NCBI GenBank assembly: GCA_019239875.1
Contig: JAFAZI010000109.1
Span: 2,372 to 66,371, forward strand
Source of the DNA: Frankiaceae bacterium
GTDB lineage: Bacteria > Actinomycetota > Actinomycetes > JAFAQI01
Direction of reading: 5' to 3'
Length of the DNA: 64,000 nucleotides
Part shown: positions 12,362-28,616 of the stretch, one piece after another
How positions within the stretch are numbered: position 1 is the stretch's first letter
Layout: each line of letters opens with the position of its first letter
Translations under genes and position numbers: made by a program
The notes under the pieces: model-generated
Seen by the model: only the letters and a program-made list of their open reading frames with translations
Database searches by the model: none
What the model was told of the DNA's origin: nothing

Positions 12362-13441
12362 TCAGCTGTCGATCTCGCCCTTGATGAAGGCCTCGACGGC
12401 TTCGCGCGCCTCGTCGTCGCTGTACTGCACCGGCGGGCTCTTCATGAAGTACGACGACGCGGAGAGCACGGGTCCACCGATGCCGCGGTCCTTGGCGATC
12501 TTCGCGGCGCGAACCGCGTCGATGATGACGCCTGCGGAGTTCGGGGAGTCGTGCACCTCGAGCTTGTACTCCAGGTTCAGCGGGGTGTCGCCGAAGCTGC
12601 GGCCCTCGAGCCGGACGTAGGCCCACTTGCGGTCGTCGAGCCACGGCACATGGTCCGACGGTCCGATGTGGACGTCGGCGCCGCGCATCTCGTGCGGAAT
12701 CTGGGAGGTGACCGACTGGGTCTTGGAGAGCTTCTTCGACGCGAGGCGCTTGCGCTCCAACATGTTCTTGAAGTCCATGTTGCCGCCGAAGTTCAGCTGG
12801 TAGGTGCGCAGCAGCTCGACGCCGCGGTCCTCGAACAGCTTCGCGAGGACCCGGTGCGTGATGGTCGCGCCGACCTGGCTCTTGATGTCGTCACCCACGA
12901 TCGGGACGCCGGCGTCGGCGAACTTCTTCGCCCAGACCGGGTCGCTCGCGATGAAGACCGGGAGCGCGTTGACGAAGCCCACACCGGCGTCGATCGCGCA
13001 CTGCGCGTAGAAGCGGTCCGCGTCCTCGCTGCCGACCGGCAGGTAGGAGACGAGGACGTCGACGTCCGCGTCCTTGAGGACCTGCACGACGTCAACCGGC
13101 TCCTCGTCGGACTCCTCGATCATCTCGAGGTAGTAGTCGCCGAGGCCGTCGTACGTGTGGCCACGCTGGACGATGACGCCGGACGGCGGTACGTCGCAGA
13201 TCTTGATCGTGTTGTTCTCGCTGGCGACGATCGCCTCGGAGAGGTCGCGCCCGACCTTCTTGCCGTCGACGTCGAAGGCGGCGACGAACTCGACGTCACG
13301 GACGTGATAGCCGCCGAATTCGACGTGCATCAGCCCCGGTACGCGAGCCTCAGCGTCGGCGTTCCGGTAGAACTCGACGCCCTGAACGAGGGACGAGGCG
13401 CAGTTGCCCACGCCCACAATGGCGACTCGGATGGAACCCAT
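12362..13441 (-). CDS. ino1: myo-inositol-1-phosphate synthase
   Basis: 359-aa ORF. The N-terminus [25 protein letters not shown] and the overall sequence are typical of actinobacterial Ino1. It lies downstream of a PadR regulator, as in Mycobacterium and Streptomyces. Confidence 0.92.
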
Positions 13442-13477
13442 GAGTGGTGTTCTCCTTCAGATGCTGAGGGTCAGCGT

Positions 13478-14086
13478 TTACGGGGTCTTGGTGGCGGCGG
13501 CGCTGCTCTTGGCGGCACGGCCGGCCCGGTGCGGCCGGGCGGCCACTCCGTCGCGTTCGGTGGCGATGAGCTCGTTGAGCCAGCGCACCTCGCGCTCTAC
13601 GGACTCCAGGCCGTGGCGCTGGAGCTCGAGGGTGTAGCGGTCGAGCTTCTCGCGAGTGCTCGTCATCTCGGTGCTCGCGTTCGCCTTGCGCTCCTCGAGC
13701 CGGCTGCGCCGGCCCTCGAGGATGCGGAGCCGAACCTCGGCATCGGTTTGGGAGAAGAACGCGAACCGGACGCCGAACGCCTCGTCGTCCCAGGTCGACG
13801 GGCCACCTTCGGCGAGCTGCTCCTGGAGCCGCTCCTTGCCTTCGGCCGTCAACTTGTAGACGTGCTTCTTGCGCCGGCCGGGACCGGACTCACTCGCCGA
13901 GTCGTCCGTCGTGATGTAGCCCGCCCGCTGCAGCTCCGACAGGCAGGGATACAAGCTGCCGTAGGAGATGGCGCGGAACGGACCGAGGACACCCTTGAGA
14001 CGCTTGGACAGCTCGTAGCCGTGCAGGGAAGACTCGTGCAGCAGACCGAGTACGGCGAGGTCGAGCACGCCGGACTTTCTGCTCAC
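13478..14086 (-). CDS. PadR-family transcriptional regulator (InoR-like, upstream of ino1)
   Basis: Winged-helix PadR signature LDLAVLGLLHESSLHGYELSKRLK...ISYGSLYPCLSELQRAGYI is present. I chose the GTG at 14086. The track start at 14143 would put a perfect palindrome inside the coding sequence. Confidence 0.85.
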   Translation of the reverse strand: MSRKSGVLDLAVLGLLHESSLHGYELSKRLKGVLGPFRAISYGSLYPCLSELQRAGYITTDDSASESGPGRRKKHVYKLTAEGKERLQEQLAEGGPSTWDDEAFGVRFAFFSQTDAEVRLRILEGRRSRLEERKANASTEMTSTREKLDRYTLELQRHGLESVEREVRWLNELIATERDGVAARPHRAGRAAKSSAAATKTP

Positions 14087-14123
14087 GAGGACGCTCCAAA
14101 GGGCTGATCGCGCGGATGATCTC

Positions 14124-14144
14124 GATGTATCGAAGTGATACATC
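14124..14144. promoter_or_regulatory. perfect palindrome, candidate PadR/InoR operator
   Basis: GATGTATC gaagt GATACATC has 8-bp perfect arms containing ATGT...ACAT. It lies about 38 bp upstream of the proposed padR start. Confidence 0.45.
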
Positions 14145-14206
14145 GGAGAAGGTACATGCCGGGTGGCATCCAGGCAAATTCCCGGTGAACCGGCGTGTTG
14201 CGGGGG

Positions 14207-14356
14207 TTAGGTCAGAGCGAAGCGGCTAACTGCGGGGGCGAGGCTTCCCGCCCGGCCAGGTTTCGTCGGCCGGTTGCGGGCCCGGCTTAGGGCGAAAAGC
14301 GGCTAACTGCGGGGGCGAGGCTTCCCGCCCGGCCCGGTTTCGTCGGCCGGTTGTGG
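14207..14356. repeat. tandem duplication, period about 77-80 bp, two units
   Basis: Unit 1 (14221-14279) is agcggctaactgcgggggcgaggcttcccgcccggccaggtttcgtcggccggttgcgg. Unit 2 (14298-14356) differs at 2 positions. Both are preceded by ttag. Each unit holds two short hairpins (gcggg/cccgc and ccggcc/ggccgg). Confidence 0.85.
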
Positions 14357-14602
14357 TTCATCGCGTGTCGTGAGTTGTTAGCGACGCTCCCACGGCACCA
14401 CCTACTCACGACCCTAGAAAGTCGGCCCGGCCAGCGCGACCGCGCCGTGGTGGCGAGCGGCGCCCAGCAGTCAGCCCGCGCGGGTTGTAAGCCGTTGACG
14501 GTGCTCCAGCACCACTAACAGCTCACGCCTCAGAGAGCGAGCCATCTCCGGCCCGCGACACGCAACCAGCAGTGGAAGCTGTGCCCCTGCAGTTAGCCCG
14601 CC

Positions 14603-14686
14603 TTGAGCTACGTGCCACGAGGCGAGCGTCTTGAGCTACGTGCCACGGGGCGAGCGCTTTGAGCTACGTGCGACGAGGCAAGCCTG
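14603..14686. repeat. three contiguous 28-bp direct repeats abutting the DUF5318 start codon
   Basis: The units are ttgagctacgtgccacgaggcgagcgtc, ttgagctacgtgccacggggcgagcgct and ttgagctacgtgcgacgaggcaagcctg. The array ends 6 nt before the ATG at 14693. Confidence 0.85.
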
Positions 14687-14692
14687 AAGAGG

Positions 14693-15157
14693 ATGCTCAG
14701 CGGCGCGGCGTATGGTGACGCGATGCTGACCCAGCGGTCGTTGGTGGACGAGCCGGGAGCCCGGTGCGTCGTCGACTACTCGCTGGCAAAACGCGCGGCG
14801 CTGCACAGCCTGAAGGCCGGCCGGCTGCGACCGGAGGAGGCCTGCGACGCGCAGATCTACCTGCGTCGGGCCGCCCGCTACCACGGCCTCCCGACCGGCG
14901 AGACCTGCCCGGTGTGCAACGCCGAGGACCTCACGTTGGTCCTCTACGCGTTCGGCGATGACTTCCCGAACGGCGGAAATGGCCGGGCGCGGGCCCGCAA
15001 GGAGCTGCGCGAGCTCGCGACCGTCCTGCCGGAGTTCACCGTCTTCGCCGTCGAGGTGTGCCTGGGCTGCGGCTGGAACTACCTCGTGGCGTCCTACGTC
15101 CTCGGAACAGGTGAGTCTGTGTCTCGGCGCCGGTCGCGCTCGAGCTCGCAGGCCTGA
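14693..15157 (+). CDS. DUF5318-family protein (Rv0049-like)
   Basis: The sequence includes VVDYSLAKRAALHSLKAGRL...CDAQIYLRRAARYHG...CPVCNAEDLTLVLYAFGD...CLGCGWNYL. It is conserved upstream of ponA-type PBP genes. An alternative start exists at 14714. Confidence 0.75.
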   Translation: MLSGAAYGDAMLTQRSLVDEPGARCVVDYSLAKRAALHSLKAGRLRPEEACDAQIYLRRAARYHGLPTGETCPVCNAEDLTLVLYAFGDDFPNGGNGRARARKELRELATVLPEFTVFAVEVCLGCGWNYLVASYVLGTGESVSRRRSRSSSQA

Positions 15158-15178
15158 TCACACACGGAACCGCAGCCA

Positions 15179-17305
15179 GTGAACCTTGCGCAGATCGCGC
15201 CGCGCCCCAAGCAAGTGCTCTGGGGCGTCCTCGCCGCATCGCTGGTCTGCGGGGCGCTCGCCGGACTGGCTTACGCGCGCACGAACATCCCTAACGTCAG
15301 TGCCATCGCCGCGGCGCAGACGACGACGCTCTACTACAGCGACGGCAAGACGCCGATTACGACGATCGGGTCGACGACCCGCACCGACGTCCAGCTGAAC
15401 CAGATCCCGAAGCCGGTGCAGCACGCCGTACTGGCCGCCGAGGACCGGCACTTCTACTCCGAGCCCGGGATCTCACCGACCGGAATGATCCGCGCGCTGC
15501 TCGTCGACCTCAAAGGCGGTGACATCAGCCAGGGCGGGTCGACGATCACCCAGCAATACGTGAAGAACGCCTACCTCAGCCCGAACCGCACCCTGACCCG
15601 CAAACTCAAAGAGATCATCATCGCGGCCAAGCTCGGGCAGAGCGAGTCCAAGGCGACGATCCTCGACGACTACCTGAACACCATCTACTTCGGGCGCAAC
15701 GCCTATGGGATCGAGGCAGCCGCCAAGGCGTACTTCAACAAGACGGTGCAGAACCTCAGCGTCTCCCAAGGCGCGCTGCTCGCGGCGGTCATCCGGGCAC
15801 CGAGCCTGTACGACCCGCGGGTCAGCAAGTCGGCGAAGGTCGCAGCGCAGGCGCGCTGGCAGTACGTCGTCAGCGGCATGGTCTCGCAGGGCTGGCTCAA
15901 GCAGTCGGTCGCTGACAAGCTCCACTTCCCGCACACCCGCAAGCACGGGGCGGCGAGCACCGCCTGCCAGGCGCAGGAGTGCTTCATCCGCAACGCCGTC
16001 GAGCACGAGCTCATCAACGCCGACGGCTTTCAGCAGAGCCAGCTCGACCTCGGCGGCTACAAGATCGTCACGACGATCGACAAGACCGCCGAGGACGCGC
16101 TGGTCAACGCCGAGAACACGGTGCTTCCGACGAACAACTCCGGCACGCCGGAGTCCGGCGCGATCTCGGTCGTACCGGGTGACGGAGCCATTCGCGCGCT
16201 CTACGGCGGCCGGGAGTACTGCGGACACAAGAAGCAGAACCCCGACGCGTGTATCGACCTGTCCGGCTCCACCGGGTTCTGGGCGCGACCGCCGGGATCG
16301 TCGTTCAAGCTCTTCACCCTGATCGCAGCGCTGAAGCAGGGCATCTCGCTCGGAGACACGTTCGACGGGCCGCCGACGGTCACTGTGGACGGTCAGACGA
16401 TCCACAACGCGTCGGCGGGCGAGAGCTGTTATGGCTGCACGCTGCTCGCGGCGTTCGCGAAGTCGGTGAATACGGTCTTCGTGCCGCTGGCCAAGCAGAT
16501 CGACCCGAAGACCGTCGTCAAGGCCGCTGAGTCGGCCGGGATCCCGGCGAGCCGCAAGCTGCCGGCGGTCCCCGACGTGACCCTCGGTCCGACGGACGTC
16601 TCGCCGCTCGAGCTTGCCAACGCCTACGCCACCGTGGCGGCGCAGGGGCTGCGGGCGACGCCGTACCTGGTCAAGTCGGTGACGACCAACAACGGGCAGC
16701 ACGTCTACACGGCGGACCCGAAGGCGAACACCGAGCAGGTGTTTCCGAAGGGGATCATGGCCTCGGCCATCTATGCGATGACCAAGGTGCTCCAGCCGGG
16801 CGGGACGGCGTACGGACGAGCCCTGTCGGGGCGGCCCTCTGCCGGCAAGACCGGCACCGTCGGCAACGCCAGTGGCCAGAACGTCGACGCCTGGTTCACG
16901 GGCTTCACCCCGCAGCTGTGCACCACCGTGTGGATCGGCAACGTCAACCGAAACCGGCCGCTCAGTGGTGGCACCGGCGAGGTGTTCGGTGGCACGCTGC
17001 CGGCGGAGATCTGGCAGATGATGATGAACGTCGCCCTCGCTAACGCGACGCCGGAGCCGTTCCCGACACCGTCGGCGATCGTCATCCAGCACACCAGGAG
17101 TCCGAAGCCGACCGGATCGCCGTCGCCGACCGCGACCGAGACGGTCACCGCGAAGCCGACCAAGACGCCGACCAAGACGCCGACGAGCAAGCCGACTCCC
17201 ACCGAGACGATCACCCCGAGCCAGTCGCCGACCGGAACTCCGAGTGGTGGGCCGACGAAGCTCAAGCCGCCGCACGCGCGTCACCATCAGCGCGAGCGTC
17301 ACTGA
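15179..17305 (+). CDS. ponA: class A penicillin-binding protein (GT51 transglycosylase plus transpeptidase)
   Basis: GT51 motifs AAEDRHFYSEPGISPTG and GGSTITQQYVKN are present, as are the transpeptidase SSFK and KTGT motifs. It has an N-terminal TM anchor and a Pro/Thr-rich tail. Confidence 0.92.
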   Translation: MNLAQIAPRPKQVLWGVLAASLVCGALAGLAYARTNIPNVSAIAAAQTTTLYYSDGKTPITTIGSTTRTDVQLNQIPKPVQHAVLAAEDRHFYSEPGISPTGMIRALLVDLKGGDISQGGSTITQQYVKNAYLSPNRTLTRKLKEIIIAAKLGQSESKATILDDYLNTIYFGRNAYGIEAAAKAYFNKTVQNLSVSQGALLAAVIRAPSLYDPRVSKSAKVAAQARWQYVVSGMVSQGWLKQSVADKLHFPHTRKHGAASTACQAQECFIRNAVEHELINADGFQQSQLDLGGYKIVTTIDKTAEDALVNAENTVLPTNNSGTPESGAISVVPGDGAIRALYGGREYCGHKKQNPDACIDLSGSTGFWARPPGSSFKLFTLIAALKQGISLGDTFDGPPTVTVDGQTIHNASAGESCYGCTLLAAFAKSVNTVFVPLAKQIDPKTVVKAAESAGIPASRKLPAVPDVTLGPTDVSPLELANAYATVAAQGLRATPYLVKSVTTNNGQHVYTADPKANTEQVFPKGIMASAIYAMTKVLQPGGTAYGRALSGRPSAGKTGTVGNASGQNVDAWFTGFTPQLCTTVWIGNVNRNRPLSGGTGEVFGGTLPAEIWQMMMNVALANATPEPFPTPSAIVIQHTRSPKPTGSPSPTATETVTAKPTKTPTKTPTSKPTPTETITPSQSPTGTPSGGPTKLKPPHARHHQRERH

Positions 17306-17325
17306 CGTCGCTAACGTCAGCGTCG

Positions 17326-18858
17326 ATGCCTACCCACACCCCGTCGCTGGAGGACCCCGCCGTCTCGGGGGTCACCCGGCTGATCGGCGGGCGATGGGGA
17401 CGCCACGCGGTCGGGACGACGTCGTGGTGGTGGACGCCACTGCGCATCGCGCTCGGAGCGACGATCCTCGTAACCGTCCTGGCGTACCTGCAGAAGTCAC
17501 CGTGCCTGACCCACTCGTACACGGACGAGTACCAGTACACGCGGGTCTGTTACACCGACACGTACGCCCTCTACACAGCTGAGGGCCTGAACGCGAAGAC
17601 CGACGCCGATGGCAACGTGATCGGTACGACGTCCGTGCCGTACGGCGACCATCCGGTGGAGTACCCGCCGGTGATCGGCGGTCTGATGTGGGCAGCAGCC
17701 GAGGTCACGTCGACGATCCACGGCGGCGGAGGTGACCAGGACCCGGCGACCGGTCTCGCGAGCGGTAGCCGCAACACGACGTTCTTCAACGTGACCGCCC
17801 TCGGCCTCGCGTTGTGCGCGCTCGTCTCGACCTGGACGGTCGCTCGCATCGCCGGTCGACGCCGGGCCTGGGACGCGATGATGGTCGCGCTGTCACCGGC
17901 GCTGCTCCTGCACGCCTTCACGAACTGGGACCTCGCCGCCGTCGCGGCGACCGGGCTCGGTCTGTGGTTCTGGAGCCGTGGATCCCCGCTGTGGTCGCCG
18001 ATCCTGGCAGGGGTGTTCCTCGGGATCGGCATCGCGACCAAGCTCTATCCCGCGTTCGTGCTGCTTGCGATCCTCATGCTCTGCCTGCGGGCGGCCAAGT
18101 GGCGGGCAGGGCTGCTCGCCATCGCCGGTGCAGCGGCCGGCGTCGTCGCCTGCTACGTCCCCGCGATCCTGGTCTCGAACAACTTCCTTTTCCCGAACGG
18201 TGACTGCAAGTACGCGCAGCCGCTATCGGGATGGCGCTGGTTCTTCTCGCTCAGCCGGGACCGGGGAACGGACTGGGGCAGCGTCTGGCTGGTCGTTCAA
18301 CACTGGTTCTCAGGTGATGCGATCGGACGCGCGATGAACACCCCTGCTGCTGCGGCGGGGACCTGCAGCGCGACACCGACGTCGCTGAACCACATCGCGG
18401 AGGCCGCAGTTCTGGTCGTCATCGCCGGAGTGGGACTGCTTGTCGCGCTCGCGCCCCGCCGCCCCCGCGTGGGTCAGGTCGCGTTCCTTCTGGTCGCCGG
18501 ATTCGTCATGCTCAACAAGGTCGACTCGCCGCAGTACGTGCTGTGGCTGGTGCCGCTCGCTGTGCTCGCGCGCCCACGGTGGGTGTCGCTGCTGGTCTGG
18601 CAGGTGAGCGAGGTGGCGCTGGGCATTGCCAACCTCTACACGCTGATCGCGCTCGACCACTCCGACCAGGGCCTACCGCTGGACACCTACCTGTTGTTCA
18701 TCGTCGCGCGCGACGTCGTCCTGGTGTGGCTCATGGCCCTGGTCGTCCGCGACGTGCTCGTGCCTCGGATCGACGTCGTCCGACGGGACGGGGTCGATGA
18801 CCCGGCCGGCGGAGTGCTGGACGGAGCAGCGGATTCCGGTGCCGCCTTCGCGCGCTGA
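17326..18858 (+). CDS. polytopic membrane glycosyltransferase, GT87/DUF2029-like (Rv0051-like)
   Basis: 510-aa ORF with about 10 TM helices, located downstream of ponA as Rv0051 is. The family assignment comes from synteny and topology only. Confidence 0.65.
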   Translation: MPTHTPSLEDPAVSGVTRLIGGRWGRHAVGTTSWWWTPLRIALGATILVTVLAYLQKSPCLTHSYTDEYQYTRVCYTDTYALYTAEGLNAKTDADGNVIGTTSVPYGDHPVEYPPVIGGLMWAAAEVTSTIHGGGGDQDPATGLASGSRNTTFFNVTALGLALCALVSTWTVARIAGRRRAWDAMMVALSPALLLHAFTNWDLAAVAATGLGLWFWSRGSPLWSPILAGVFLGIGIATKLYPAFVLLAILMLCLRAAKWRAGLLAIAGAAAGVVACYVPAILVSNNFLFPNGDCKYAQPLSGWRWFFSLSRDRGTDWGSVWLVVQHWFSGDAIGRAMNTPAAAAGTCSATPTSLNHIAEAAVLVVIAGVGLLVALAPRRPRVGQVAFLLVAGFVMLNKVDSPQYVLWLVPLAVLARPRWVSLLVWQVSEVALGIANLYTLIALDHSDQGLPLDTYLLFIVARDVVLVWLMALVVRDVLVPRIDVVRRDGVDDPAGGVLDGAADSGAAFAR

Positions 18859-18870
18859 GGCGTCGAGGAG

Positions 18871-20307
18871 TCAGCCGGTTCGGACGGTGACCTCTCCGGT
18901 CGTCTGGTCGTAGGTGGCAACGCCGTACTCGAAGGTGCACTGCTGGCCAGGACCGTCCGGCAACGTGACATCGGTGACGTCGGTGACCGGGAAGCCGAGC
19001 TCGCCGCCGGCCCGGCCCTGGTCGTTCCAGGTCGTGTAGATCGGGCCCCACACTCCGTGGGCCTGTGGCCGACCGGTGATGCGGGTGATCGCCCCGGCGG
19101 CGCAGAGCAGCTCTGTCCCGGCCACGCCCTTGGCGTCGACTGCTGGGTGCTGATCTGCAGTGGGCAGCCCGACCGGGCTGGTCTCAGCACCGAGCTGGTG
19201 ATACTTGGCAGCGATCTCGCCGAGCAGGAGGTACGGCGAGCGTCCTTTCGGCCGGTAGAGCGATCCGCCGGTGAACCTGGCGAAGTCTCCTTGGTCCTGG
19301 TGCAGCGGCCGGATCTCGGTGGTCGGGTAGCCGAGCGGGCCGGCCGTCCCGTCGAGGTCACGCCAGCGGTGCCAGATCGCTCCCCAGAGGGCGTGGGTCT
19401 CGCCACCGTGCTGGTGGTAGATGCCGCCGTGCTGGAACCTCGCGCGCTTGCCGTGCTTGTCGCGCGTGGTTTCGACGTCGGTCACCGGCAGCCCGAGCAC
19501 CGACGACGCCTGGTGCAGATGCAGGTAGTGGTGAAGCACCGAACCGTCGAGGTAGTGCGCGCCGGTGTGCCTCGACCAGTACATCCGCCCGTGCTCGTAG
19601 TGCTGCGTGTGACCGTGCTCGGTCACGTGCTCACGGCCGACGGTCGTCCCGAGGACAGAGGACTGGGAGCCGAGCTCGGTGTATCGCTTCTGGATGTGGG
19701 ACCAGCCCGGCAGGCAGGGCGCCGAGTGACTCACGGTGAAGTTGTCCGTTGCGGCGGTCGTGGTGCAGTTGGCCCACCGCCATGGCGGGGTGCAGGAGAT
19801 CGCCCGACATACGACCGGCCCGCCGCATTTCCGGTCGAGCTCGCACTGGCCGTAGCGGAACACGTTGTGGCACACCCGACGCTCATCGCAGGTGCCGTGG
19901 TGCGCGCAGTGCGGCTTGCAGTCCCAGCAGTGCTCAGGGCAGAAGTGCGAGCCGCCCGGGCAGCCGCAATGGCTGCACTCGGCCTGGCAGTCGACGTAGT
20001 AGCGCGCGCTACCGCCGCAGAGGTTGGCACCCTCGGCCTTCCACCAGCCGCCGGCGAAGGTGCCCGGCGGGCACTGGTTCACGCCGTGGTTGATGGTGCA
20101 GCACATCGCAGTCCAGCCGGAGCTGCACGTGTTCCCGCTGCCACAGACCGAGGCGTATGCCGTGCCGGGGTGCAGGATGTAGTCGAGGCCGTTTGCGGTC
20201 ACGGCCGACCCGACGACGGCAGCCCGAGCGAAGAACCCGCGACGGGACAGCCGCCGCGACAAGACGGTGGACGCCGCGGTGGCGAGCCGTTCGGTCGGCG
20301 AGGTCAC
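18871..20307 (-). CDS. Tat-signal protein: Cys-rich methylamine-dehydrogenase-light-chain-like domain plus about 5 LGFP repeats
   Basis: It has a twin-arginine motif (SRRLSRRGFFARAAVVG). It has 22 Cys in about 150 aa, including NQCPPGTFAGGWWKAEG and ARYYVDCQAEC. LGFP-type repeats follow (LGLPVTDVETT..ARFQHGGIY; LGYPTTEIRPL..ARFTGGSLY; LGFPVTDVTDV..CTFEYGVATY). The GTG start overlaps the upstream stop (GTGA). Confidence 0.85.
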   Translation of the reverse strand: MTSPTERLATAASTVLSRRLSRRGFFARAAVVGSAVTANGLDYILHPGTAYASVCGSGNTCSSGWTAMCCTINHGVNQCPPGTFAGGWWKAEGANLCGGSARYYVDCQAECSHCGCPGGSHFCPEHCWDCKPHCAHHGTCDERRVCHNVFRYGQCELDRKCGGPVVCRAISCTPPWRWANCTTTAATDNFTVSHSAPCLPGWSHIQKRYTELGSQSSVLGTTVGREHVTEHGHTQHYEHGRMYWSRHTGAHYLDGSVLHHYLHLHQASSVLGLPVTDVETTRDKHGKRARFQHGGIYHQHGGETHALWGAIWHRWRDLDGTAGPLGYPTTEIRPLHQDQGDFARFTGGSLYRPKGRSPYLLLGEIAAKYHQLGAETSPVGLPTADQHPAVDAKGVAGTELLCAAGAITRITGRPQAHGVWGPIYTTWNDQGRAGGELGFPVTDVTDVTLPDGPGQQCTFEYGVATYDQTTGEVTVRTG

Positions 20308-20747
20308 TGGATCGCCATCGATGCGACCAAGCGGCTGGCCTCCTCGACCAGCCGCCTGCGGCGGGCGTGACTGCCGAGCACGATGTACAGGCAGAACGCG
20401 CGGCCGGCCTCGTTGAAGAAGTACTGAACGCCGCTCTGGCCGCGCAGCGTCCGTTGCAGCGCGCGCGGCGAGAAGTCATCAGCATGAACCCGTGGCATGC
20501 CACGGTTGCTGAACAGCGCCGTCGCCGCCGCGCTCGGGTCGTGCTCGACGAGGGCGACCATCACGTTCGTCGGCCCCATGATCTCGACCGCGCCCGAGCC
20601 GTAGTCACCGCGCCGGGCCGGCAGCGGGAAGTTCGCGGCGTGGACGATCGGAAACGTGCGTTCGACCGTCGCGACGTCCGCGGTACGACGAAAGATCCGC
20701 ACGTCCCAGGCCGGGGGTGCGGTGACGCGCAGGCCGTGAGCCTTCAT
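20304..20747 (-). CDS. hypothetical cytoplasmic protein (147 aa) embedded in the MauE/MauD-like operon
   Basis: Trimmed from track ORF 20304..21044 to the ATG at 20747, which forms an ATGA overlap with the upstream redoxin stop. Its own stop overlaps the downstream GTG. It has no signal peptide, no TM segment and no motif I recognise. Confidence 0.6.
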   Translation of the reverse strand: MKAHGLRVTAPPAWDVRIFRRTADVATVERTFPIVHAANFPLPARRGDYGSGAVEIMGPTNVMVALVEHDPSAAATALFSNRGMPRVHADDFSPRALQRTLRGQSGVQYFFNEAGRAFCLYIVLGSHARRRRLVEEASRLVASMAIQ

Positions 20748-21478
20748 CGACCGTGGAGACCGCTGTCCGTCGTTTCGCCGCGGAGCGAGTCGGCCGAGGA
20801 CTCGGGGTAGAGGCTGGCGTGTCCCGGCCCGATGCCGGCGGCAGCGAGCTCGAGATCGATCCGCTCGGCGTTGTCGCGGCCCGGTGGCAGCAGGTCGATC
20901 GGCTGCGGCCCGGCGCCGGTGGCGTGCTCGAGGAGGTCGCGGACCTGCGCCCAGGTCGAAGCGGTTCCCTCGCCGATGACCAGACCACTCGGTCCGTCGA
21001 CGTGCACGAAGTGCGGCGAACCGGGGACCTCGTAGCTCTGCCACGCCTCGTCGGAGGCGATGACCAGCAGGTCCGGCCCGGCGAGCTTCTGCAGGCGTGG
21101 CACGCTGTCGCCGGCTTGCACGACCGCGATGACCCGGGCGCCGCCGGGTACGTCGACGCCGGCTGCCAGTGCCGCCCAGAACGGCTCACAGGTGTAACAG
21201 GTGGCCGAGAGGAAGGCGAGCAGGGTCCGGCCGGCCGATCCCGCGAGGGCGATCTCGACGGCTTCGCCGTCGAGCGTCGTACCAGCCAGCGGAAGAGCCG
21301 GGGCGTTGGCCGCGGCCGTGCCGGGGGCGGTCCGGACGACAGTGCGGGATGTCTCCTCGGGCCCGCCGTCGAGGTCGTGCAGCCGTCGCAGGATCTCGGC
21401 GTGGCTGCGCAGCAGCCCGACGACGAGCAGTCCGAGGAACAGCACTGCGACACCTTCGGCGATCGAGATGGCCACCAT
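20744..21478 (-). CDS. membrane-anchored thioredoxin-fold redoxin (MauD/TlpA-like), CxxC = CYTC
   Basis: N-terminal TM anchor (VAISIAEGVAVLFLGLLVVGLL) followed by a thioredoxin fold with LLAFLSATCYTCEPFW. Trimmed from the track start 21556 to the ATG at 21478. Confidence 0.75.
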   Translation of the reverse strand: MVAISIAEGVAVLFLGLLVVGLLRSHAEILRRLHDLDGGPEETSRTVVRTAPGTAAANAPALPLAGTTLDGEAVEIALAGSAGRTLLAFLSATCYTCEPFWAALAAGVDVPGGARVIAVVQAGDSVPRLQKLAGPDLLVIASDEAWQSYEVPGSPHFVHVDGPSGLVIGEGTASTWAQVRDLLEHATGAGPQPIDLLPPGRDNAERIDLELAAAGIGPGHASLYPESSADSLRGETTDSGLHGR

Positions 21479-21495
21479 CGCTGGGTCCTTTCCAG

Positions 21496-22014
21496 TCAGG
21501 TACGGCGGGTCGCGGCGAGGCGCGGACTGATCGTGAGAACCGCCCAGCCCAGCCACGCGACGACCGCCGCGAAGCCGAGTGCGGCGATCACCTGGATGGT
21601 GGTTCCCGGGCCGCCGCTGCGGACTCCCGTCGGGTCACCGGCCGCGGCGGCGGCGATCGCGGTCGCCGCGAACGTCGTCGTGAGGACGAGGTGGCCGATC
21701 GTGGGCGGAGTGTCGTCACGGCCGGTGCAGCCGCACGACGACGTCGGCGTACGGAGAGCGCGGAGGAGGAAGCCGGAGAAGCCGGCGTAGAGGACGGCAA
21801 CCGCCGCGTCGGTGACGCGGGTCCCGAAGGTGATGGCGGTGACGCCGACCATGAGCTCGGCGAGCCCGAGCAGCGTCACGGCGGCCACCCCCGCCCGAGT
21901 CAGTCCGATGCTTCGCAAGGCGAGGACGGTCGGGGCGGGACGGCGGAGCTTCTGACTTCCGCTGAGTGCGAGCAGGAGAGCGCTCGCGATGGTGACCGGC
22001 GCCCAAACGTGCAT
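21496..22014 (-). CDS. MauE/DoxX-family redox-associated membrane protein
   Basis: 172-aa ORF with four TM helices and the loop motif SSCGCTGRDD. Its length and topology are typical of actinobacterial MauE-like proteins. It is the first gene of the operon. Confidence 0.7.
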   Translation of the reverse strand: MHVWAPVTIASALLLALSGSQKLRRPAPTVLALRSIGLTRAGVAAVTLLGLAELMVGVTAITFGTRVTDAAVAVLYAGFSGFLLRALRTPTSSCGCTGRDDTPPTIGHLVLTTTFAATAIAAAAAGDPTGVRSGGPGTTIQVIAALGFAAVVAWLGWAVLTISPRLAATRRT

Positions 22015-22106
22015 TGCTGGCGCACGCTAGCGACTCGATTCCAGTGATCACAAGCGACACGGCACCGGCGGCGACAACTGGGCGTTGTCGTGATTTGGTG
22101 GTGACG

Positions 22107-22892
22107 ATGGCTTCCCTCACCGTTTCCGCCCTCGCGTTCGCCCTTGCGATCGTGGTCGCGGTCCGTTCGACGTGGTCGCCGTGCGGGATCTCGATGCTGT
22201 CGACGCTCACACCGTTGGGCGAACGCAGTCGAGGTCATGCCTACGGCGCGACGGTGGCATGGTTCGTCGCCGGCGCCGTGGCCGGCGGGGCGGTGCTCGG
22301 CGGGCTCCTCGCCGGACTCGCGGCTGTGGTTGATCTGTGCCACCTGTCGGCCACGACCGTTGCGGGTCTCGCGGTCGCCGCCGCCGCCGTGACGGTCACC
22401 TCGGACCTGGAGGTGGCCGGCTTCCACCTGCCGCGGATCCCGCGCCAGGTCGACGAGAACTGGACCGGGCGCTACCGGCGCTGGGTGTACGCGGCCGGAT
22501 TCGGTGCGCAAATCGGTGTCGGCGTGAGCACCTATGTGATGACCGCCGGCGTTTATCTCATGATGGTGCTGGCGGCGCTGACCGGCCGTCCGGTCGTCGC
22601 GCTCGCCGTCGGCACCTGTTTCGGCCTGGTCCGCGGCCTCGCCATTCTCTGCGGCGTACGGCTGCGGACACCGGAGGCGATCCGGGCGTTCCATCGTCGC
22701 TTCGAGACCGCCGGTCCGGTGTCGCTGCAGGTCGCGGTGATCGCCCAGTTCAACGTGCTCGCTGTCTCACTCGCCGCCGCGACCGACGCGCCGTACGGAC
22801 TCGTGATGGTGGTCGTGAATGGTCCGCTCCTCTGCCGGTACGCCCTGCGATGGGTTGCGCCGAGGATTCGAGCCCGTCGCCGGTCGGCGTAA
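22107..22892 (+). CDS. polytopic membrane protein, CcdA/DsbD-like thiol-disulfide transporter candidate
   Basis: Six or more TM helices. TM1 has a Cys in TWSPCGISMLSTL (compare the SPC motif of CcdA). A later helix has a second Cys (AVGTCFGLVRG). It is divergent from the mauE-like gene. The ATG at 22107 was chosen from track ORF 22014..22892. Confidence 0.55.
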   Translation: MASLTVSALAFALAIVVAVRSTWSPCGISMLSTLTPLGERSRGHAYGATVAWFVAGAVAGGAVLGGLLAGLAAVVDLCHLSATTVAGLAVAAAAVTVTSDLEVAGFHLPRIPRQVDENWTGRYRRWVYAAGFGAQIGVGVSTYVMTAGVYLMMVLAALTGRPVVALAVGTCFGLVRGLAILCGVRLRTPEAIRAFHRRFETAGPVSLQVAVIAQFNVLAVSLAAATDAPYGLVMVVVNGPLLCRYALRWVAPRIRARRRSA

Positions 22893-22951
22893 CGAATCGA
22901 GTTGGTCCTCGTTTGGTGACTGTGAGGCTGTCTTCAGGGCACGATGTGGCC

Positions 22952-23848
22952 ATGCGTAGGTCCGTGGTCATCGCCGGCGCGGTGCTGGTCGCCGCCGGGG
23001 GCGGTGTCATGGCGGGTACGGCGAGCGGCTCAGCCGGCTCGGGCTGCGCCATTATCACCATCTCCGGGCCGGCGATCGGCAGCGGCAAGCTACAGGTCTC
23101 GCCGGCCGCCAGCACGGTCAAGGCCGGGGACTGCGTGGGGTTCCGCAACGCAACGAACCCGGCTGAGCCGGTCGGGCTGACGATCACCAAGTCGGGCAAG
23201 GCGGTCTACAGCACGACCATCGCCAGGGGCCAGAGCGTGTCCGGTTCCAACGGCTTCGTGCCCCGCGACGCCGGGCAGTTCGCGCTGGCCGCGACCGCGA
23301 CCGAGCCGCTCGGGTTCGTCGTCCACGGCCAGGCCAGCATCACGGCGAAGCCCGCGCCGAGCTCGTCGCCGTCGGGGAGCAGCTCACCGACGCCACACTC
23401 CAGCCCGTCGTCGGGACACTCGACGAAGCCCACGAAGTCACACTCGAAGGGCAAGAACCACAAGGGGAAGAACAAGACCGCACCGAAGCCGCACGCCACC
23501 GGCATCAAGCTGCCGCCGCTTCCCCCGCTGCCGGCCAACATCCTGACCGCGCCGGCGCCGAAGGGGACCAACCCGGTGGTGGCGCCGGGGCCGACCACGG
23601 CGAGCCCGATCACCGAGTCCGCCTCTCCCGTGGCGGCGATCTACAACGGGCCGATCGAGGCCGCCGCCGACAACAGCCGGGGGCTGCCGATCGCGATCGG
23701 GGTGCTGGTCTTCCTCGGCGTCGCCAGTGGCTGGGGTCGTGCCCTGCTCGCCACGGCCGTGCCGGTGGACCGTCGTACCCGCGCGACTGGCGACAAGCGC
23801 CGCACGTCCGGTGTGGACAAGCGCCGCAAGGGCGATCACCGCGTCTAG
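22952..23848 (+). CDS. exported protein: small beta-sandwich-like domain, Ser/Pro/Lys-rich linker, C-terminal TM anchor
   Basis: The ATG at 22952 (MRRSVVIAGAVLVAAGGGVMAG) is in frame within the over-extended track ORF 22337..23848. The linker reads SSSPSGSSSPTPHSSPSSGHSTKPTKSHSKGKNHKGKNKT. The anchor reads LPIAIGVLVFLGVASGW. Confidence 0.65.
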   Translation: MRRSVVIAGAVLVAAGGGVMAGTASGSAGSGCAIITISGPAIGSGKLQVSPAASTVKAGDCVGFRNATNPAEPVGLTITKSGKAVYSTTIARGQSVSGSNGFVPRDAGQFALAATATEPLGFVVHGQASITAKPAPSSSPSGSSSPTPHSSPSSGHSTKPTKSHSKGKNHKGKNKTAPKPHATGIKLPPLPPLPANILTAPAPKGTNPVVAPGPTTASPITESASPVAAIYNGPIEAAADNSRGLPIAIGVLVFLGVASGWGRALLATAVPVDRRTRATGDKRRTSGVDKRRKGDHRV

Positions 23849-23990
23849 GCTCGCGCCCACCTTCCACTGCTAGCCTGGGCGGCGCTCGACGCAGAGCAGC
23901 CTCCTGTCACGACCGCCGTTCCGGCGTGCGTGGCCGCCTCGTCACCACCGTGGTGACGTGCACCGAGTCCAGAGGAGGTGGGTTGCACGC

Positions 23991-24281
23991 ATGCGTCACT
24001 ACGAACTGATGGTCATCCTCGATCCTGATCTCGAGGAGCGGACGGTTCAGCCGTCACTCGAGACGTTCCTCAACGTGATCCGCCAGGGTGGTGGAACCGT
24101 CGACAACATCGATGTCTGGGGCCGCCGCCGGCTCGCCTACGAGATCGACCACAAGGTCGAGGGCATCTACGCGATCCTCGACGTCACGGCCGAGCCGGCC
24201 AGCGTCAAGGAGCTCGACCGGCAGCTCAACCTCAACGAGTCAGTGCTGCGCACCAAGGTGCTGCGGCCTGAGGCGAAGTAG
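23991..24281 (+). CDS. rpsF: 30S ribosomal protein S6
   Basis: Sequence [30 protein letters not shown]...[10 protein letters not shown], with a Shine-Dalgarno aggagg upstream. Confidence 0.97.
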
Positions 24282-24290
24282 GGCGGCGAC

Positions 24291-24788
24291 ATGGCACAAG
24301 GTGACGTTGTCATCACGGTGATCGGGAACTTGACCGACGATCCGGAGCTCCGGTTCACCCCGAGCGGCGCGGCTGTCGCGAACTTCACGGTCGCGTCGAC
24401 GCCTCGCATCCTCGACAAGGCGACGAACGAGTGGAAGGACGGCGACGCGCTGTTCCTGCGCTGCTCCGTGTGGCGGCAGGCCGCCGAGAACGTCGCGGAG
24501 TCGCTGCAGCGTGGCGGCCGCGTGATCGTGACCGGGCGGCTGCGGCAGCGGTCGTATGAGACGAAGGAAGGCGAGAAGCGCACCGTCGTCGAGCTTGAGG
24601 TCGACGAGATCGGTCCGTCGCTTCGATTCGCGACCGCGAAGGTCACGAAGGCCTCGCGCGGTGGCGGCGGCGGTGGTGGTTCGTCGTACGGCGGTGGGTC
24701 CGGCGGTGGCTCGGCGCCCGCGAACGACGACCCCTGGGCGACGCCCGCGCCGTCCGGCGGCGGCTTCTCCGACGAGCCGCCCTTCTAG
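24291..24788 (+). CDS. ssb: single-stranded DNA-binding protein
   Basis: OB fold ([31 protein letters not shown]), a Gly-rich tail and an acidic tip (DEPPF). Confidence 0.97.
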
Positions 24789-24869
24789 GCCTCGGCCCAC
24801 AACTACCCGTCCTGACTTCCCCGACCATCCCCTCCGACTGCGAGGGTTTGCACTGACTGGAGCACCACG

Positions 24870-25106
24870 ATGGCCAAGCCTGTCGTCAGAAAGCTGAAGA
24901 AGAAGGTCTGTCAGTTCTGCAAGGACAAGACCGCCTACATCGACTACAAAGACACGAACCTGCTGCGCAAGTTCATCTCCGACCGCGGCAAGATTCGTGC
25001 CCGCCGAGTGACCGGCAACTGCTCGCAGCATCAGCGCGACATCGCGACCGCGGTGAAGAACAGCCGCGAGATGGCGCTGCTGCCGTACACGAGCACGGCG
25101 CGCTGA
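24870..25106 (+). CDS. rpsR: 30S ribosomal protein S18
   Basis: Sequence [60 protein letters not shown]. Confidence 0.97.
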
Positions 25107-25117
25107 GGAGGCTCGAG

Positions 25118-25567
25118 ATGAAACTCATCCTGACTCAGCAGGTGACCGGGCTCGGCGAGCCTGGCGACATCGTCGAGGTCAAGGACGGCTACGGCCGCAA
25201 CTTCCTCGTGCCCCGGGGCCTCGCGATCCGGTGGACTCGCGGAGGCGAGACGCAGGTCACGGCGCTGCGCCGCGGCCGCGCGACGCGCGAGATCGCCGAC
25301 GTCAGCGAGGCGAAGCAGATCGCCGGCCAGCTGGCGACGCTCCAGGTGACGTTGACCTCGCGCGCCGGCGACGGCGGCCGGCTGTTCGGTTCGGTCACGA
25401 CAGCCGACGTGGTCGAGGCGGTGGCAGCGGCCGGCGGGCCGAAGCTGGACCGCCGGCGCCTCGAGCTGCCGAGCGCGCACATCAAGACGGTTGGCACCCA
25501 TGCGGTGTCGGTACGGCTGCACCCCGAGGTCACCGCGTCGATGAACATCGAGGTCGTCCCGGCCTGA
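25118..25567 (+). CDS. rplI: 50S ribosomal protein L9
   Basis: Sequence MKLILTQQVTGLGEPGDIVEVKDGYGRNFLVPRGLA. Confidence 0.97.
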   Translation: MKLILTQQVTGLGEPGDIVEVKDGYGRNFLVPRGLAIRWTRGGETQVTALRRGRATREIADVSEAKQIAGQLATLQVTLTSRAGDGGRLFGSVTTADVVEAVAAAGGPKLDRRRLELPSAHIKTVGTHAVSVRLHPEVTASMNIEVVPA

Positions 25568-25693
25568 GGCTCGGTCGGGGTTCTGACACACAGACCGGTG
25601 GCTCGCGGTCCACGTCGAGCATCGGTCCGCGCCACGACACTGCGTTTGTGTGTTGCGTCCCCGGCCATCGACACGACCGCTACGGTGCGCCTC

Positions 25694-26821
25694 ATGCGCT
25701 CACATCTCCTATGGGTCGTCGCGGTACTTGCCTTGGTGACCGTGACCGTGGCCGCGCCAGCGACCGCGTCCGCACGCACCGGGCACCGGACGAGCACTCG
25801 ATCAGTTCCGCATCACGTCGTTCGGGTCGGCCGCCATGCCGTCGAGCGATTCGCTCCGCGAGGTGGTGGTAAGCACGAGTTCGACACCAACGTCCTCGAC
25901 GCTGGTGACGTGAAGCTGACGTCGTCGACCGGTCTGCCGTTGCACGTGAACGTGTTCGTCGACCAGTTCAGCGACGGGACAGCGGGGAACACCGGCACGA
26001 TTCTCGAGGTCGGCGTTTACGACCGTCACGGCGAGGATCACCTGTGGTCGGTCGACGTCGGGCGGCGGGCTTTCCTGTGGGATTCGCTTAGCCAGGCTGG
26101 CACCGTGCACTCGGGCGAACAGCTCGGACCGCTTGGCAAAGTCCGCCTCAGCGTCACCGCCGACGGGAAACCGCGGACGACGACCTGCCCGTCGGGCAGG
26201 CATTTCGTTCAGACGCCCGTCAAGGTGTGGGGGGAGGTGCAGGTCGACAGTCAGTCCGCGGCCTGGGGAGTCTTGGGAAACGGGATCGATCGGCTGTATT
26301 TCAAGGGTCATCCATCCCTCGAGCAGGATTACGGCCAGATTGGCGACGCGTGCCAGGGTTTCGCGTCGCGGCGCTGCGACGGGTCGGCGGAGGCCGTTAC
26401 GGGTGGCGCGGCCGGTTTCCTCGATGCTGAGGGCTTCGCTGCTGGCAACGGGACGCCAGTGGGTACTGGCGTCTTCTTCGACCACCCCGCACAGATGCCG
26501 GACGGGGTCGAAGGGTTCGCGGATGATTTCGCGACCCCGTTCCTCGACCCCCTCACCGTCAAGCGTCATGGCGCGACGAAGCGGGTGACCTTGACCGGCG
26601 ATGACACCGGGTTGATCACCGGATCCGCGACTTGGGCGAGCAAAGGGAAGCCCCACAAGGAGCCGGGGGTCTGTCGTGGCGGCGTCGCCAAACGGTGGAG
26701 TGCGGCGTACACCAACGGTGATGTGCCGCTGACGGTGACCTTCGGAGCAGGCGGGACCTATTCGTTCCCTGACTCCGGGCACGACGCTCAACTGATGCTT
26801 CGGCCTCTGGTCCATCGGTAG
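25694..26821 (+). CDS. hypothetical secreted protein
   Basis: Signal peptide (MRSHLLWVVAVLALVTVTVAAPATASA) at an internal ATG of track ORF 25598..26821. I recognised no domain. Confidence 0.6.
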   Translation: MRSHLLWVVAVLALVTVTVAAPATASARTGHRTSTRSVPHHVVRVGRHAVERFAPRGGGKHEFDTNVLDAGDVKLTSSTGLPLHVNVFVDQFSDGTAGNTGTILEVGVYDRHGEDHLWSVDVGRRAFLWDSLSQAGTVHSGEQLGPLGKVRLSVTADGKPRTTTCPSGRHFVQTPVKVWGEVQVDSQSAAWGVLGNGIDRLYFKGHPSLEQDYGQIGDACQGFASRRCDGSAEAVTGGAAGFLDAEGFAAGNGTPVGTGVFFDHPAQMPDGVEGFADDFATPFLDPLTVKRHGATKRVTLTGDDTGLITGSATWASKGKPHKEPGVCRGGVAKRWSAAYTNGDVPLTVTFGAGGTYSFPDSGHDAQLMLRPLVHR

Positions 26822-27221
26822 CTCATCCGACCAAAATTCGGGCAATCCGGGTCGAAATCCCCAGCCTGTGGGAGACCCTGTGGGCGACGGCTGGGGGGTC
26901 GGGCGTCGTTCTCCAGCCGTTCGCCTCCTCGTCGTCCGCCAGACTCCTCGACTTCTTCGCTCCGCACAGATGTGAAAATCCAACGTTGCAGGTCAGACTG
27001 CGTGTCGCCAACTGATCTAGAACTAGTTCCACAGCGCTTTCAACAGGTGTGCACAGCGACGCATCGAGTCATCCACCCCGTATCCACAGATGGGTGCACA
27101 GCCTGCGAATTCGATTGCCGGATAGTGGTTCCGCCCGTCCGCCAATCGCCATAGCGTCACGCGCGATGTTGTCATACCCGGCTGCTGGACTCGGTCCCAT
27201 GCGTCCCATCTGTCACACGCC

Positions 27222-28616
27222 GTGCGCGACGGTGGCCCGGTGAGCGCCGAGCTCGTCTCGGTGCCGGGCGGCGCCGACCGGATCGACATCGACCGGACCC
27301 CGCCGCAGGACATCCTTGCCGAGCAGTGCGTGCTCGGCGGGATGCTGCTGTCCAAGGACGCGATCGCCGATGTCGTCGAGGTGCTGCGGCCGACCGACTT
27401 CTACCGGCCGGTGCACCAGACGATCTACGACGCGGTCATCGACCTCTACGGCAAGGGCGAGCCGGCTGACCCGGTCACGATCGCCGCGGAGCTCACTCGC
27501 ACCGGCCACCTCGAGCGGGTCGGCGGCGGGCCATACCTCCACACTTTGGTCGCCTCGGTGCCGACGGCGGCGAACGCGGGCTACTACGCCGAGATCGTGC
27601 GGGAGCGCGCGATCCTGCGCCGACTGGTGGAAGCCGGGACGAGGGTCGTGCAGCTCGGGTACGGCGCGGCCGCCGGCATGGGCGGCGATGTCGACGATGT
27701 GGTCGATCGCGCGCAGGCCGCCGTGTACGAGGTCGTCGAGCGGCGCACCAGCGAGGACTACATCGGTCTCGAAGCCGCGATGTGGCAGACCTACAACGAG
27801 ATTGAGGCGATCGGAAACCGAGACGGCGAGCTGTATGGCGTGCCCACCGGATTCCGAGACCTTGATGAGCTGACCAACGGTCTTCACGCCGGCCAACTCA
27901 TCATCGTCGGGGGCAGGCCAGGTCTCGGGAAGTCGACAGTGGGGATGGACTTCCTGCGTTCGGCAAGCATTTCCCACAACCTTGCGTCGGTCCTTTTCTC
28001 GCTTGAAATGGGCAAGAGCGAGATCACCATGCGGTTGTTGTCAGCTGAGGCGCGAATCCCACTGACCCGCATTCGCACCGGCACCCTGACCGATGACGAC
28101 TGGAACAAGCTCGCGCGGCGGATGGGTGAGGTGGCGTCTGCGCCGATGTTCATCGACGACTCACCGAACATGACGATGATGGAGATCCGAGCCAAGGCGC
28201 GACGCCTGAAGCAGCGACACGACCTGCGGCTGATCGTCGTCGACTACCTCCAGCTGATGACCAGCCCGAAGCGGGTTGAGAACCGGCAGCAAGAAGTCGC
28301 GGAGATGAGTCGATCCCTCAAGCTGCTCGCGAAGGAGCTCGGCGTGCCGGTCGTCGCATTGAGCCAGTTGAACCGCGCGTCCGAACAGCGCTCGGACAAG
28401 CGTCCACAGCTTTCTGACTTGAGAGAAAGTGGATCTGTGGAGCAAGATGCAGACATGGTGATCTTGCTGCATCGTGAAGATGCCTACGAGCGAGAGTCAC
28501 CAAGAGCGGGCGAGGCGGACCTGATCGTCGCCAAACATCGAAACGGTCCGACGAAGGATGTCGTCGTTTCGAGCCAACTCCATTACTCGCGCTTCGTGGA
28601 CATGCCTCACAGCTAG
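27222..28616 (+). CDS. dnaB: replicative DNA helicase DnaB, complete and intein-free
   Basis: N-terminal domain (PPQDILAEQCVLGGMLLSKDAIADVVE), Walker A (GGRPGLGKST), Walker B (LIVVDYLQLM) and an uninterrupted DLRESGSVEQDADMVILL. The C-terminus is HYSRFVDMPHS. The exact start is uncertain (GTG 27222 or 27240). Confidence 0.95.
   Translation: MRDGGPVSAELVSVPGGADRIDIDRTPPQDILAEQCVLGGMLLSKDAIADVVEVLRPTDFYRPVHQTIYDAVIDLYGKGEPADPVTIAAELTRTGHLERVGGGPYLHTLVASVPTAANAGYYAEIVRERAILRRLVEAGTRVVQLGYGAAAGMGGDVDDVVDRAQAAVYEVVERRTSEDYIGLEAAMWQTYNEIEAIGNRDGELYGVPTGFRDLDELTNGLHAGQLIIVGGRPGLGKSTVGMDFLRSASISHNLASVLFSLEMGKSEITMRLLSAEARIPLTRIRTGTLTDDDWNKLARRMGEVASAPMFIDDSPNMTMMEIRAKARRLKQRHDLRLIVVDYLQLMTSPKRVENRQQEVAEMSRSLKLLAKELGVPVVALSQLNRASEQRSDKRPQLSDLRESGSVEQDADMVILLHREDAYERESPRAGEADLIVAKHRNGPTKDVVVSSQLHYSRFVDMPHS

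Follow-up and report, generated by a model that had tools for sequence, protein, structure and literature searches.

The window analysed here is a stretch of 64,000 nucleotides of high-GC actinobacterial DNA from a Frankiaceae bacterium (assembly GCA_019239875.1, contig JAFAZI010000109.1, positions 2,372 to 66,371). It contains a compact gene unit, hereafter the cassette, in which a cysteine-rich exported protein (A) is encoded together with a MauE-family membrane protein (E), a MauD-like redoxin (D), a MauF-like membrane protein (F) and a small protein without a family name (X). E, D and F resemble proteins of the methylamine dehydrogenase (MADH) gene cluster. The gene content of the cassette, its distribution in Actinomycetota and the most probable role of its products were analysed.

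Four open reading frames (ORFs) of the minus strand had been recognised in a first-pass annotation of the window, and all four were recovered at the same coordinates with coding-type base composition (GC content at third codon positions, GC3, of 0.86–0.88). They are E (21496–22014, 172 aa), D (20744–21478, 244 aa, membrane-anchored and thioredoxin-like), X (20304–20747, 147 aa, without a signal peptide) and A (18871–20307). The tight coupling that had been described was also present, since the stop and start codons overlap at D/X (ATGA) and at X/A (GTGA). The spacing between E and D is short as reported, but it measures 17 nt from the E stop to the D start instead of 18 nt, and the ribosome-binding site GGAAAGGA lies inside it. 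The four genes had been taken as the complete operon; the coupling of E, D, X and A held, but the gene count did not, because the MauF-like gene F had been missed. The unit is therefore composed of five genes, with F divergent from E-D-X-A. F occupies 22107–22892 on the plus strand and encodes a polytopic membrane protein of 261 aa, identified by BLASTP similarity to MauF and by the motif RSTWSPCG. The mechanical ORF of F begins at a TTG at 22014, and the codon of Cys26 is TGC at 22182–22184. In a near-identical metagenome contig (L096), an independent gene caller returned the same layout with E of 172, D of 244, X of 147, A of 478 and F of 261 aa. Read from the sequence, the divergent intergenic region between E and F spans about 92 nt (22015–22106) and presumably contains the promoters of both genes. 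A promoter and terminator scan gave nothing; its simple sigma-70 search returned no site, which is uninformative for a high-GC actinobacterium.

A is composed of three parts. Residues 1–52 (20152–20307, minus strand) form a long twin-arginine leader. The SRRGFF motif that had been noticed is present at R22-R23, preceded by an N-terminal helix and followed by an h-region and an AYA cleavage motif (consensus AYA/AVCG). R22 and R23 were invariant in all 41 aligned sequences, and the A homologue of locus L001 passed the TIGR01409 model (TAT_signal_seq) for twin-arginine translocation (Tat). Residues 53–204 (19696–20151) form the cysteine-rich head domain with 22 cysteines, as previously counted; two further cysteines lie in the repeat region, giving 24 in total. 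Residues 205–478, followed by the stop codon (18871–19695), carry the cell-wall-binding LGFP repeats. Their number had been put at about five, and Pfam PF08310 matched in five stretches (121.8 bits, E-value 1.5e-35).

The LGFP region of A also matched the whole five-repeat domain of PS1/MytA of Corynebacterium glutamicum (PDB 6SWZ/6SX4; 2e-22, query residues 6–251). In both proteins, five tandem LGFP repeats form the C-terminus of a secreted protein, but the head of PS1/MytA is a mycoloyltransferase, whereas that of A is the cysteine-rich module. The LGFP domains of MytA bind peptidoglycan-arabinogalactan (PMC11299179). The idea that the repeats form a beta-propeller replacing a heavy chain was dropped, because the structure of MytA has been described as resembling a stalk. 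Among 103 representative clusters of head-containing proteins, the C-terminal partner was LGFP in 38, CWB2 (CW_binding_2) in four and FG-GAP in four, and ricin-B, SLH, tectonin, B-lectin and unnamed propeller-like repeats were also among the partners. As these partners are almost all wall- or glycan-binding modules, the head is read as a surface-displayed module. At loci L044, L083/L084 and L095, LGFP is replaced by other repeats, namely FG-GAP-like repeats of the type AVWRPSxGVWYVRG, repeats of the type GYWLVASDGGIFxFGDA that Pfam does not name, and repeats about 110 aa long.

The head domain matched no Pfam or NCBIfam model down to an E-value of 10. It belongs to a large family: 430 relatives were collected in a word-indexed search, and 583 clusters at 50% identity in an exhaustive one. 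The mature domain contained 20, 22, 24, 26 or 28 cysteines and never an odd number (41 of 41 sequences). Moreover, cysteines were lost in pairs among the relatives (132/147, 98/203, 61/134, 130/146 and 114/127). The even counts and the pairwise losses are most simply explained if all cysteines form disulfides, 11 of them in the window protein; thus, all head cysteines are probably disulfide-bonded. The motifs N-x-C79-P-P-G, G-W88-W89, R-Y-x-x-D106-C107 and F-R-Y-G-Q-C155 were invariant, and N-x-C-P, G-W-W, D-C, F-R-Y-G and C-R remained so across the 103 divergent representatives. So many invariant residues other than cysteine point to a defined binding or catalytic site, and the WW, R-Y..D-C and FRYGQ motifs probably form the core of such a surface.

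The assignment of E to the MauE family held with PF07291 (45 bits, the cutoff being 27; 1.6e-11). Its CGC motif, of the CXC type, lies at residues 94–96 (nt 21727–21735), between transmembrane (TM) helices 3 and 4, and SCGCTG of E aligned with DCGCFR of Paracoccus denitrificans MauE. MauE proteins complement an Escherichia coli dsbB mutant, and the CXC motif is the active site of these DsbB-like proteins (bioRxiv 10.64898/2026.03.05.709764). E shares with them the Pfam family and the active-site CGC, after which comes an aromatic residue or Gly, and it is likewise expected to act through a thioredoxin-fold partner. D is a candidate for that partner: the CYTC redoxin motif was confirmed at residues 94–97 (nt 21188–21199), and the proposed MauD likeness was borne out by 28% identity over 120 aa with P. 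denitrificans MauD (E-value 5e-6), with the TM helix at the N-terminus, CxxC and the cis-Pro region all aligned. D of the window matched no Pfam model and no NCBIfam model, TIGR02661 included, so that it is called MauD-like only. The D homologue of L001 had a single, weak NCBIfam match, to TIGR02661 MauD (16.9 bits against a cutoff of 188.6). Because E carries the CXC motif of dsbB-complementing MauE, E and D are best read as a DsbB/DsbA-like pair.

X had 1083 homologues, none of them named, and no Pfam domain. Its AlphaFold2 (AF2) model was an alpha+beta sandwich with a predicted confidence (pLDDT) of 93.7. X was present in every complete cassette, and its codon overlap with A suggests that the two are stoichiometric partners. 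X may serve as an escort or chaperone for Tat export, or it may be a subunit that hitch-hikes. Its possible analogy to MauJ was rejected (hhalign probability 0.1%).

F was compared with P. denitrificans MauF and with the F proteins of other cassettes. BLASTP gave 27% identity over 165 aa with MauF (E-value 4e-7) and 42–50% identity with cassette F of other loci, and the motif STWSPCG was identical in F and MauF. Neither MauF nor window F matched a Pfam or NCBIfam model, and no curated MauF model exists there; F of L001 passed Pfam DsbD_2. Cysteine forms of F like that of the window are also numerous: RSTWSPCG was found in 116 of the best 120 F matches, which are named only "MFS permease" or "hypothetical".

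The codon of the conserved cysteine (RSTWSP-C-G) was TGC in five loci, namely the window, L016, L017, L027 and L030, which are exactly the loci with a relocated F. In all 69 loci with a stop at this position the codon was TGA, never TAA or TAG. Coding was conserved on both sides of the TGA, with a 25-residue N-terminal helix, the U residue and GESMLxSIxPLGE; examples are L001 (9409–10092), L004 (9409–10083), L060 and L067. As a result of the in-frame TGA, gene callers shorten F to 196 aa. Among the cassette genes, a recurrent in-frame stop occurred in F only. Downstream of the TGA are two hairpins, of which the first, GAUGCU-N4-AGCAUC, was invariant, including its synonymous sites. The second was 98.5% paired in 61 distinct sequences with three compensatory pairs, the changes being C-G to G-C (18 sequences) and C-G to U-A (5 and 2 sequences), where G-U pairs occurred as intermediates; these pairing values were not reached by any of 500 shuffles, and slid controls paired at 35–56%. 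For these hairpins the covariation test alone is informative, since the minimum free energy after the codon did not separate TGA from cysteine forms in such GC-rich DNA. No Rfam family was found for the F hairpin. The genes selA, selB or selD occurred in seven of 84 mapped loci, and tRNA-SeC within 10 kb in four of 49. In L060 and L067, selB, selA and tRNA-SeC directly follow the A gene and selD adjoins them (found with Pfam in L067 and with tblastn in L060). The window, where F is in the cysteine form, contained no sel genes and no tRNA.

Related F genes thus display a bacterial-selenoprotein signature, with UGA at the conserved cysteine, a downstream hairpin and linked selenocysteine (Sec) machinery, and F appears to carry selenocysteine in most related loci. 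The TGA position, the hairpin and the linkage to selA/selB/selC/selD are features that F shares with known Sec/Cys thiol-oxidoreductase families (PMC13188914). The 119 prokaryotic selenoprotein families of that 2026 review include no MauF-like or DsbD_2-like WSPUG membrane protein (PMC13188914), and NCBIfam contains no model for such a protein. Relative to this list, TGA-form F looks like a new candidate selenoprotein family. A Cys/Sec pair is the classical mark of a redox-active residue. The exchange therefore marks the F cysteine as redox-active, and it suggests that MauF proteins at large act as redox components based on a thiol or a selenol.

The cassette was found in at least 561 loci in species-level Actinomycetota genomes. 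The closest relatives are metagenome-assembled genomes of Mycobacteriales and Frankiaceae, and the carriers include cultured Kineococcus, Janibacter, Phycicoccus, Pedococcus and Oryzobacter, as well as Acidimicrobiales. Kineococcus sp. DHX-1 and Janibacter terrae NBRC 107853 are two of these carriers. The components were mapped in the 84 loci, those beyond the classified layouts being contig fragments. Co-occurrence across Actinomycetota had been proposed as a check, and the same partners were kept in 84 of 84 loci. The layout E-D-F-X-A::LGFP was found in 51 of them. In four further loci, one of which is the window, F has been inverted and lies upstream of E (F(-)/E-D-X-A::LGFP). Six other loci have the layout E-A-D-F-X-PD40, where A, about 205 aa long, stands alone and is accompanied by a PD40/TolB-like propeller protein (P), which may bear a lipobox or domains of SLH or lectin-like type. 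No mapped locus combined P with the LGFP fusion. Flanking genes were not conserved while the cassette was kept, which indicates that it moves as a unit. No literature or curated family was found for the cassette, A, X or Sec-form F, and literature searches on MauE, MauF and disulfides, on MauE in mycobacteria and on a MauF selenoprotein returned nothing on the cassette. The cassette is widespread but appears to be hitherto undescribed.

The first-pass annotation had envisaged a self-contained system that matures a wall-anchored, disulfide-knotted, Tat-exported protein, and the conservation of the cassette, the motifs and the cysteine parity support this view. Together with the gene content, the strict co-occurrence, the pairwise cysteine losses and the Cys/Sec exchange in F, they lead us to favour, with a probability of roughly 60%, an autonomous five-gene oxidative-folding module that serves one surface-displayed, disulfide-knotted head held on the wall by LGFP repeats. 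In the following scheme we infer which way electrons flow, what F and X do and that the product sits at the wall. A would be made together with X, its cytoplasmic partner or chaperone produced in step with it, and would be exported by Tat. Outside the membrane, the anchored CxxC protein D would pass disulfides to A, and E, as a DsbB-like membrane oxidase, would re-oxidise D through its CGC motif. F would be a third redox component with a single nucleophilic Cys or Sec, most plausibly one that proofreads or reshuffles wrong disulfides. The finished head would then be held on the wall by its five LGFP repeats or, in other lineages, by lectin-like modules or the PD40 partner.

Several points weigh against this folding module. 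MauE is now seen as a generalist disulfide former, and consequently the dedication of E to A is carried by gene linkage alone. Tat normally exports folded proteins, yet the disulfides are expected to form outside, a paradox that applies equally to MauA. F has one conserved cysteine, unlike CcdA/DsbD, and the role given to it in the cassette is a guess. Finally, Foldseek returned no match below 1e-3 for X; a weak match to MucB (3e-3) was followed by MTC28, LpqN, PsbP, Tsi3 and EagT6.

The first of these points can be extended to the proposal that E, D and F are general envelope disulfide machinery and that A is merely an abundant co-encoded substrate. MauE is indeed far more widespread than MauA and mostly unlinked to it, besides being able to replace DsbB, and the preprint that reports this mentions neither MauF, nor this cassette, nor Actinomycetota (bioRxiv 10.64898/2026.03.05.709764). 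The cassette differs from this general situation in that E is firmly tied to a single client as well as to a Cys/Sec protein of MauF type. Different orders of Actinomycetota share the gene order and the overlaps while the flanks are never the same, and X and A always accompany E, D and F. In addition, other Dsb/VKOR systems are usual in the genome class of the window, which also counts against a general function. We therefore regard this proposal as unlikely.

The dedicated folding module also had to be compared with the mau system itself, as the first-pass annotation had likened the head to the MADH light chain with tryptophans at both positions that form the tryptophan tryptophylquinone (TTQ) cofactor, and had considered a quinone-bearing protein possible. 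Membership in the light-chain family was not supported. A hidden Markov model search of the cargo with PF02975 gave no match even at an E-value of 10, while Thermomicrobium proteins passed this model as a positive control, and TIGR02659 did not match either; no NCBIfam model matched the head. The PDB contained no match, and no light chain, for the head as a single sequence or as a profile built from 41 members of its family. The HMMER profile of the head scored about 0 bits, which is non-significant, against 11 authentic MauA/AauA-type sequences recovered from plasmid records. A Foldseek search with the AF2 model of the head (pLDDT 74) gave no significant structural match: the best E-value was 2.7 and the TM-score about 0.14–0.3. 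Light chains of aromatic amine dehydrogenase (AADH) and MADH made up nine of the 18 Foldseek matches listed for this model, at E-values of 2.7–9.5.

A faint profile signal was nevertheless detected. An hhalign comparison with a MauA alignment gave a probability of 95% with the leader, the leaders of A and MauA being alignable, and 20% (E-value 1e-3) for the mature part alone, whose score of 26.0 exceeded that of 300 out of 300 column shuffles (maximum 24.6). This alignment pairs C79-P-P-G-T with beta-C46-P-P-G-T, W89 with beta-W57 and D106-C107 with beta-D76-C77. The MauA sequence used was 100% identical to the database record. In MauA numbering we take beta-W57 to be the quinone-bearing residue, beta-W108 the second TTQ tryptophan and beta-D76-C77 catalytic. 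W89 was invariant, but W128 (in HCWDC), which had been proposed as the second tryptophan, was not conserved, and the column aligned to beta-W108 was variable, with K in the window. Kinship with TTQ light chains is weakly indicated, by this signal, by the motifs CPPGT…W…DC and by the genes encoded alongside.

The resemblance to the P. denitrificans mauFBEDACJGMN cluster (L006) is broader at the level of the genes. Both encode a small, disulfide-packed, Tat-exported protein with an unusually long leader, in which the motifs CPPGT…W…(Y/I)xDC occur in the same order. Both also encode a CXC-type MauE, a membrane-anchored CxxC protein of MauD type and a MauF-type protein with STWSPCG, with E and D adjacent in the same order. 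The cassette differs from the mau cluster in several respects. Absence of the MauB heavy chain, MauG and amicyanin from the 64 kb had been noted, and tblastn with P. denitrificans MauB, MauG and MauJ gave no match in the window, nor was an amicyanin found there; the same search found MauB, MauG and MauJ in none of the 84 loci. The cargo lacks the second TTQ tryptophan, and its family has 10–14 disulfides against six in MauA. Beyond the mau cluster, the cassette includes the cytoplasmic protein X, and its cargo either continues into wall-binding repeats or has a PD40 propeller as partner. Unlike that of the mau cluster, the host is Gram-positive and offers no methylotrophy context. The cassette is not a methylamine dehydrogenase; it resembles an evolutionary cousin of that part of MADH clusters which comprises mauF/E/D/A. 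A different non-canonical MADH-like cluster was observed on the Thermomicrobium roseum plasmid NC_011961 (L007). It contains two genuine PF02975 light-chain genes (2717–3169 and about 7870–8312), one of them unannotated, next to a 596-aa MauE fusion, a gene resembling redoxins and several genes without a name that are about 400 aa in size, and no MauG was seen within 8 kb.

A could still be a wall-anchored quinoprotein of the amine-dehydrogenase type, with a TTQ- or cysteine tryptophylquinone (CTQ)-like cofactor on W89 made without MauG. The aligned W89, D106-C107 and C79, the invariance of WW and DC, the light chains among the structural matches, the mau-like E, D and F genes with the Tat leader, and the beta-propeller that accompanies stand-alone A would all be in keeping with it. 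However, PF02975 did not match the head, no structural match reached significance, and the partner tryptophan is not conserved. The even cysteine count leaves no spare cysteine for a CTQ thioether. No MauG, flavoprotein of the LodB/QhpG type or radical-SAM gene was found in the 84 loci, and no electron acceptor gene is present. The propeller, which was also considered as a MauB relative and rejected, is generic PD40/TolB-like and does not match PF06433, and it is absent where A has its own anchor. With the second tryptophan not conserved and no cofactor-making enzyme encoded, the suggested quinone is unsupported; a quinone cofactor in A is unlikely and the quinoprotein as a whole is quite improbable. 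An elaborated form, which we regard as a long shot, would be a new type of envelope redox machine of MauE, MauD-like and hitherto unlisted Cys/Sec MauF-like proteins that builds a wall-anchored head derived from TTQ light chains, with a redox centre, tryptophan-derived or otherwise covalent, at the invariant WW/D site and without MauG. If true, it would represent a Gram-positive class of surface quinoproteins together with a selenium-dependent maturation pathway.

It is very improbable that A represents a lectin-targeted, secreted toxin or bacteriocin, or a product like the RiPPs (peptides that ribosomes make and that are modified post-translationally), with X as cytoplasmic immunity or escort protein: the architecture of a head with lectin or wall-binding modules does resemble lectin-like bacteriocins, X is tightly coupled to A and has weak fold matches that include the immunity and escort proteins Tsi3 and EagT6, and decRiPPter flagged Streptomyces MauE/MauD clusters with cysteine-rich precursors as candidate RiPPs (PMC7794033), but the head keeps 46–74% identity and many invariant non-cysteine residues across families and orders, unlike fast-evolving toxins, each 20-kb locus holds a single cassette, and no protease, transporter or mobile-element genes are linked to it.

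The surroundings of the cassette (12362–29945) consist of the block ino1 - padR - DUF5318 - class A penicillin-binding protein (PBP) - GT87 … rpsF - ssb - rpsR - rplI - dnaB, which is conserved in actinobacteria. The PBP/GT87/rpsF flanks were found in none of the 83 other loci save the near-identical strain L096. As only L096 has the cassette at this position, its presence in the window looks like a recent insertion. Between F and rpsF lies a plus-strand gene (22985–23848, GC3 0.92) for a secreted protein, rich in Pro/Ser and anchored in the membrane at its C-terminus, which had no Pfam match and no homologue beside any other cassette. A 407-aa secreted protein without a Pfam match is encoded at 25598–26821 (plus strand), its GC3 of 0.76 being below that of its neighbours. 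The complete dnaB (27222–28616, plus strand) is followed by a separate ORF (28632–29945, plus strand) with intein-splicing and LAGLIDADG domains, in a stretch of lower GC (0.63). This ORF may be a homing-endonuclease or intein-like gene that stands alone, and not an intein in frame with DnaB. The sole cupredoxin-type signal of the window came from a multicopper oxidase at 31510–34149, 12 kb away and unlinked to the cassette. This oxidase of 879 aa, the source of the only weak amicyanin-like match, has an extra N-terminal cupredoxin domain and adjoins a right-handed beta-helix protein, the two together spanning 30032–34149 on the minus strand.

The cassette reads as a maturation set of the mau type whose Tat client is packed with disulfides, and its Sec-form F is possibly a new selenoprotein family. 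A large unnamed protein family is defined by these results, and its cultured carriers make direct testing possible. For the pathway in which MauE is DsbB-like, the cassette provides a natural dedicated client with 10–14 disulfides. The F proteins constitute a candidate selenoprotein family of Actinomycetota that is now mis-called as a shortened 196-aa "hypothetical" protein or "MFS permease". MauF, still mysterious, is tied to redox chemistry through a cysteine that alternates with selenocysteine, and this exchange pinpoints a key residue for the maturation of classical methylamine dehydrogenase as well.

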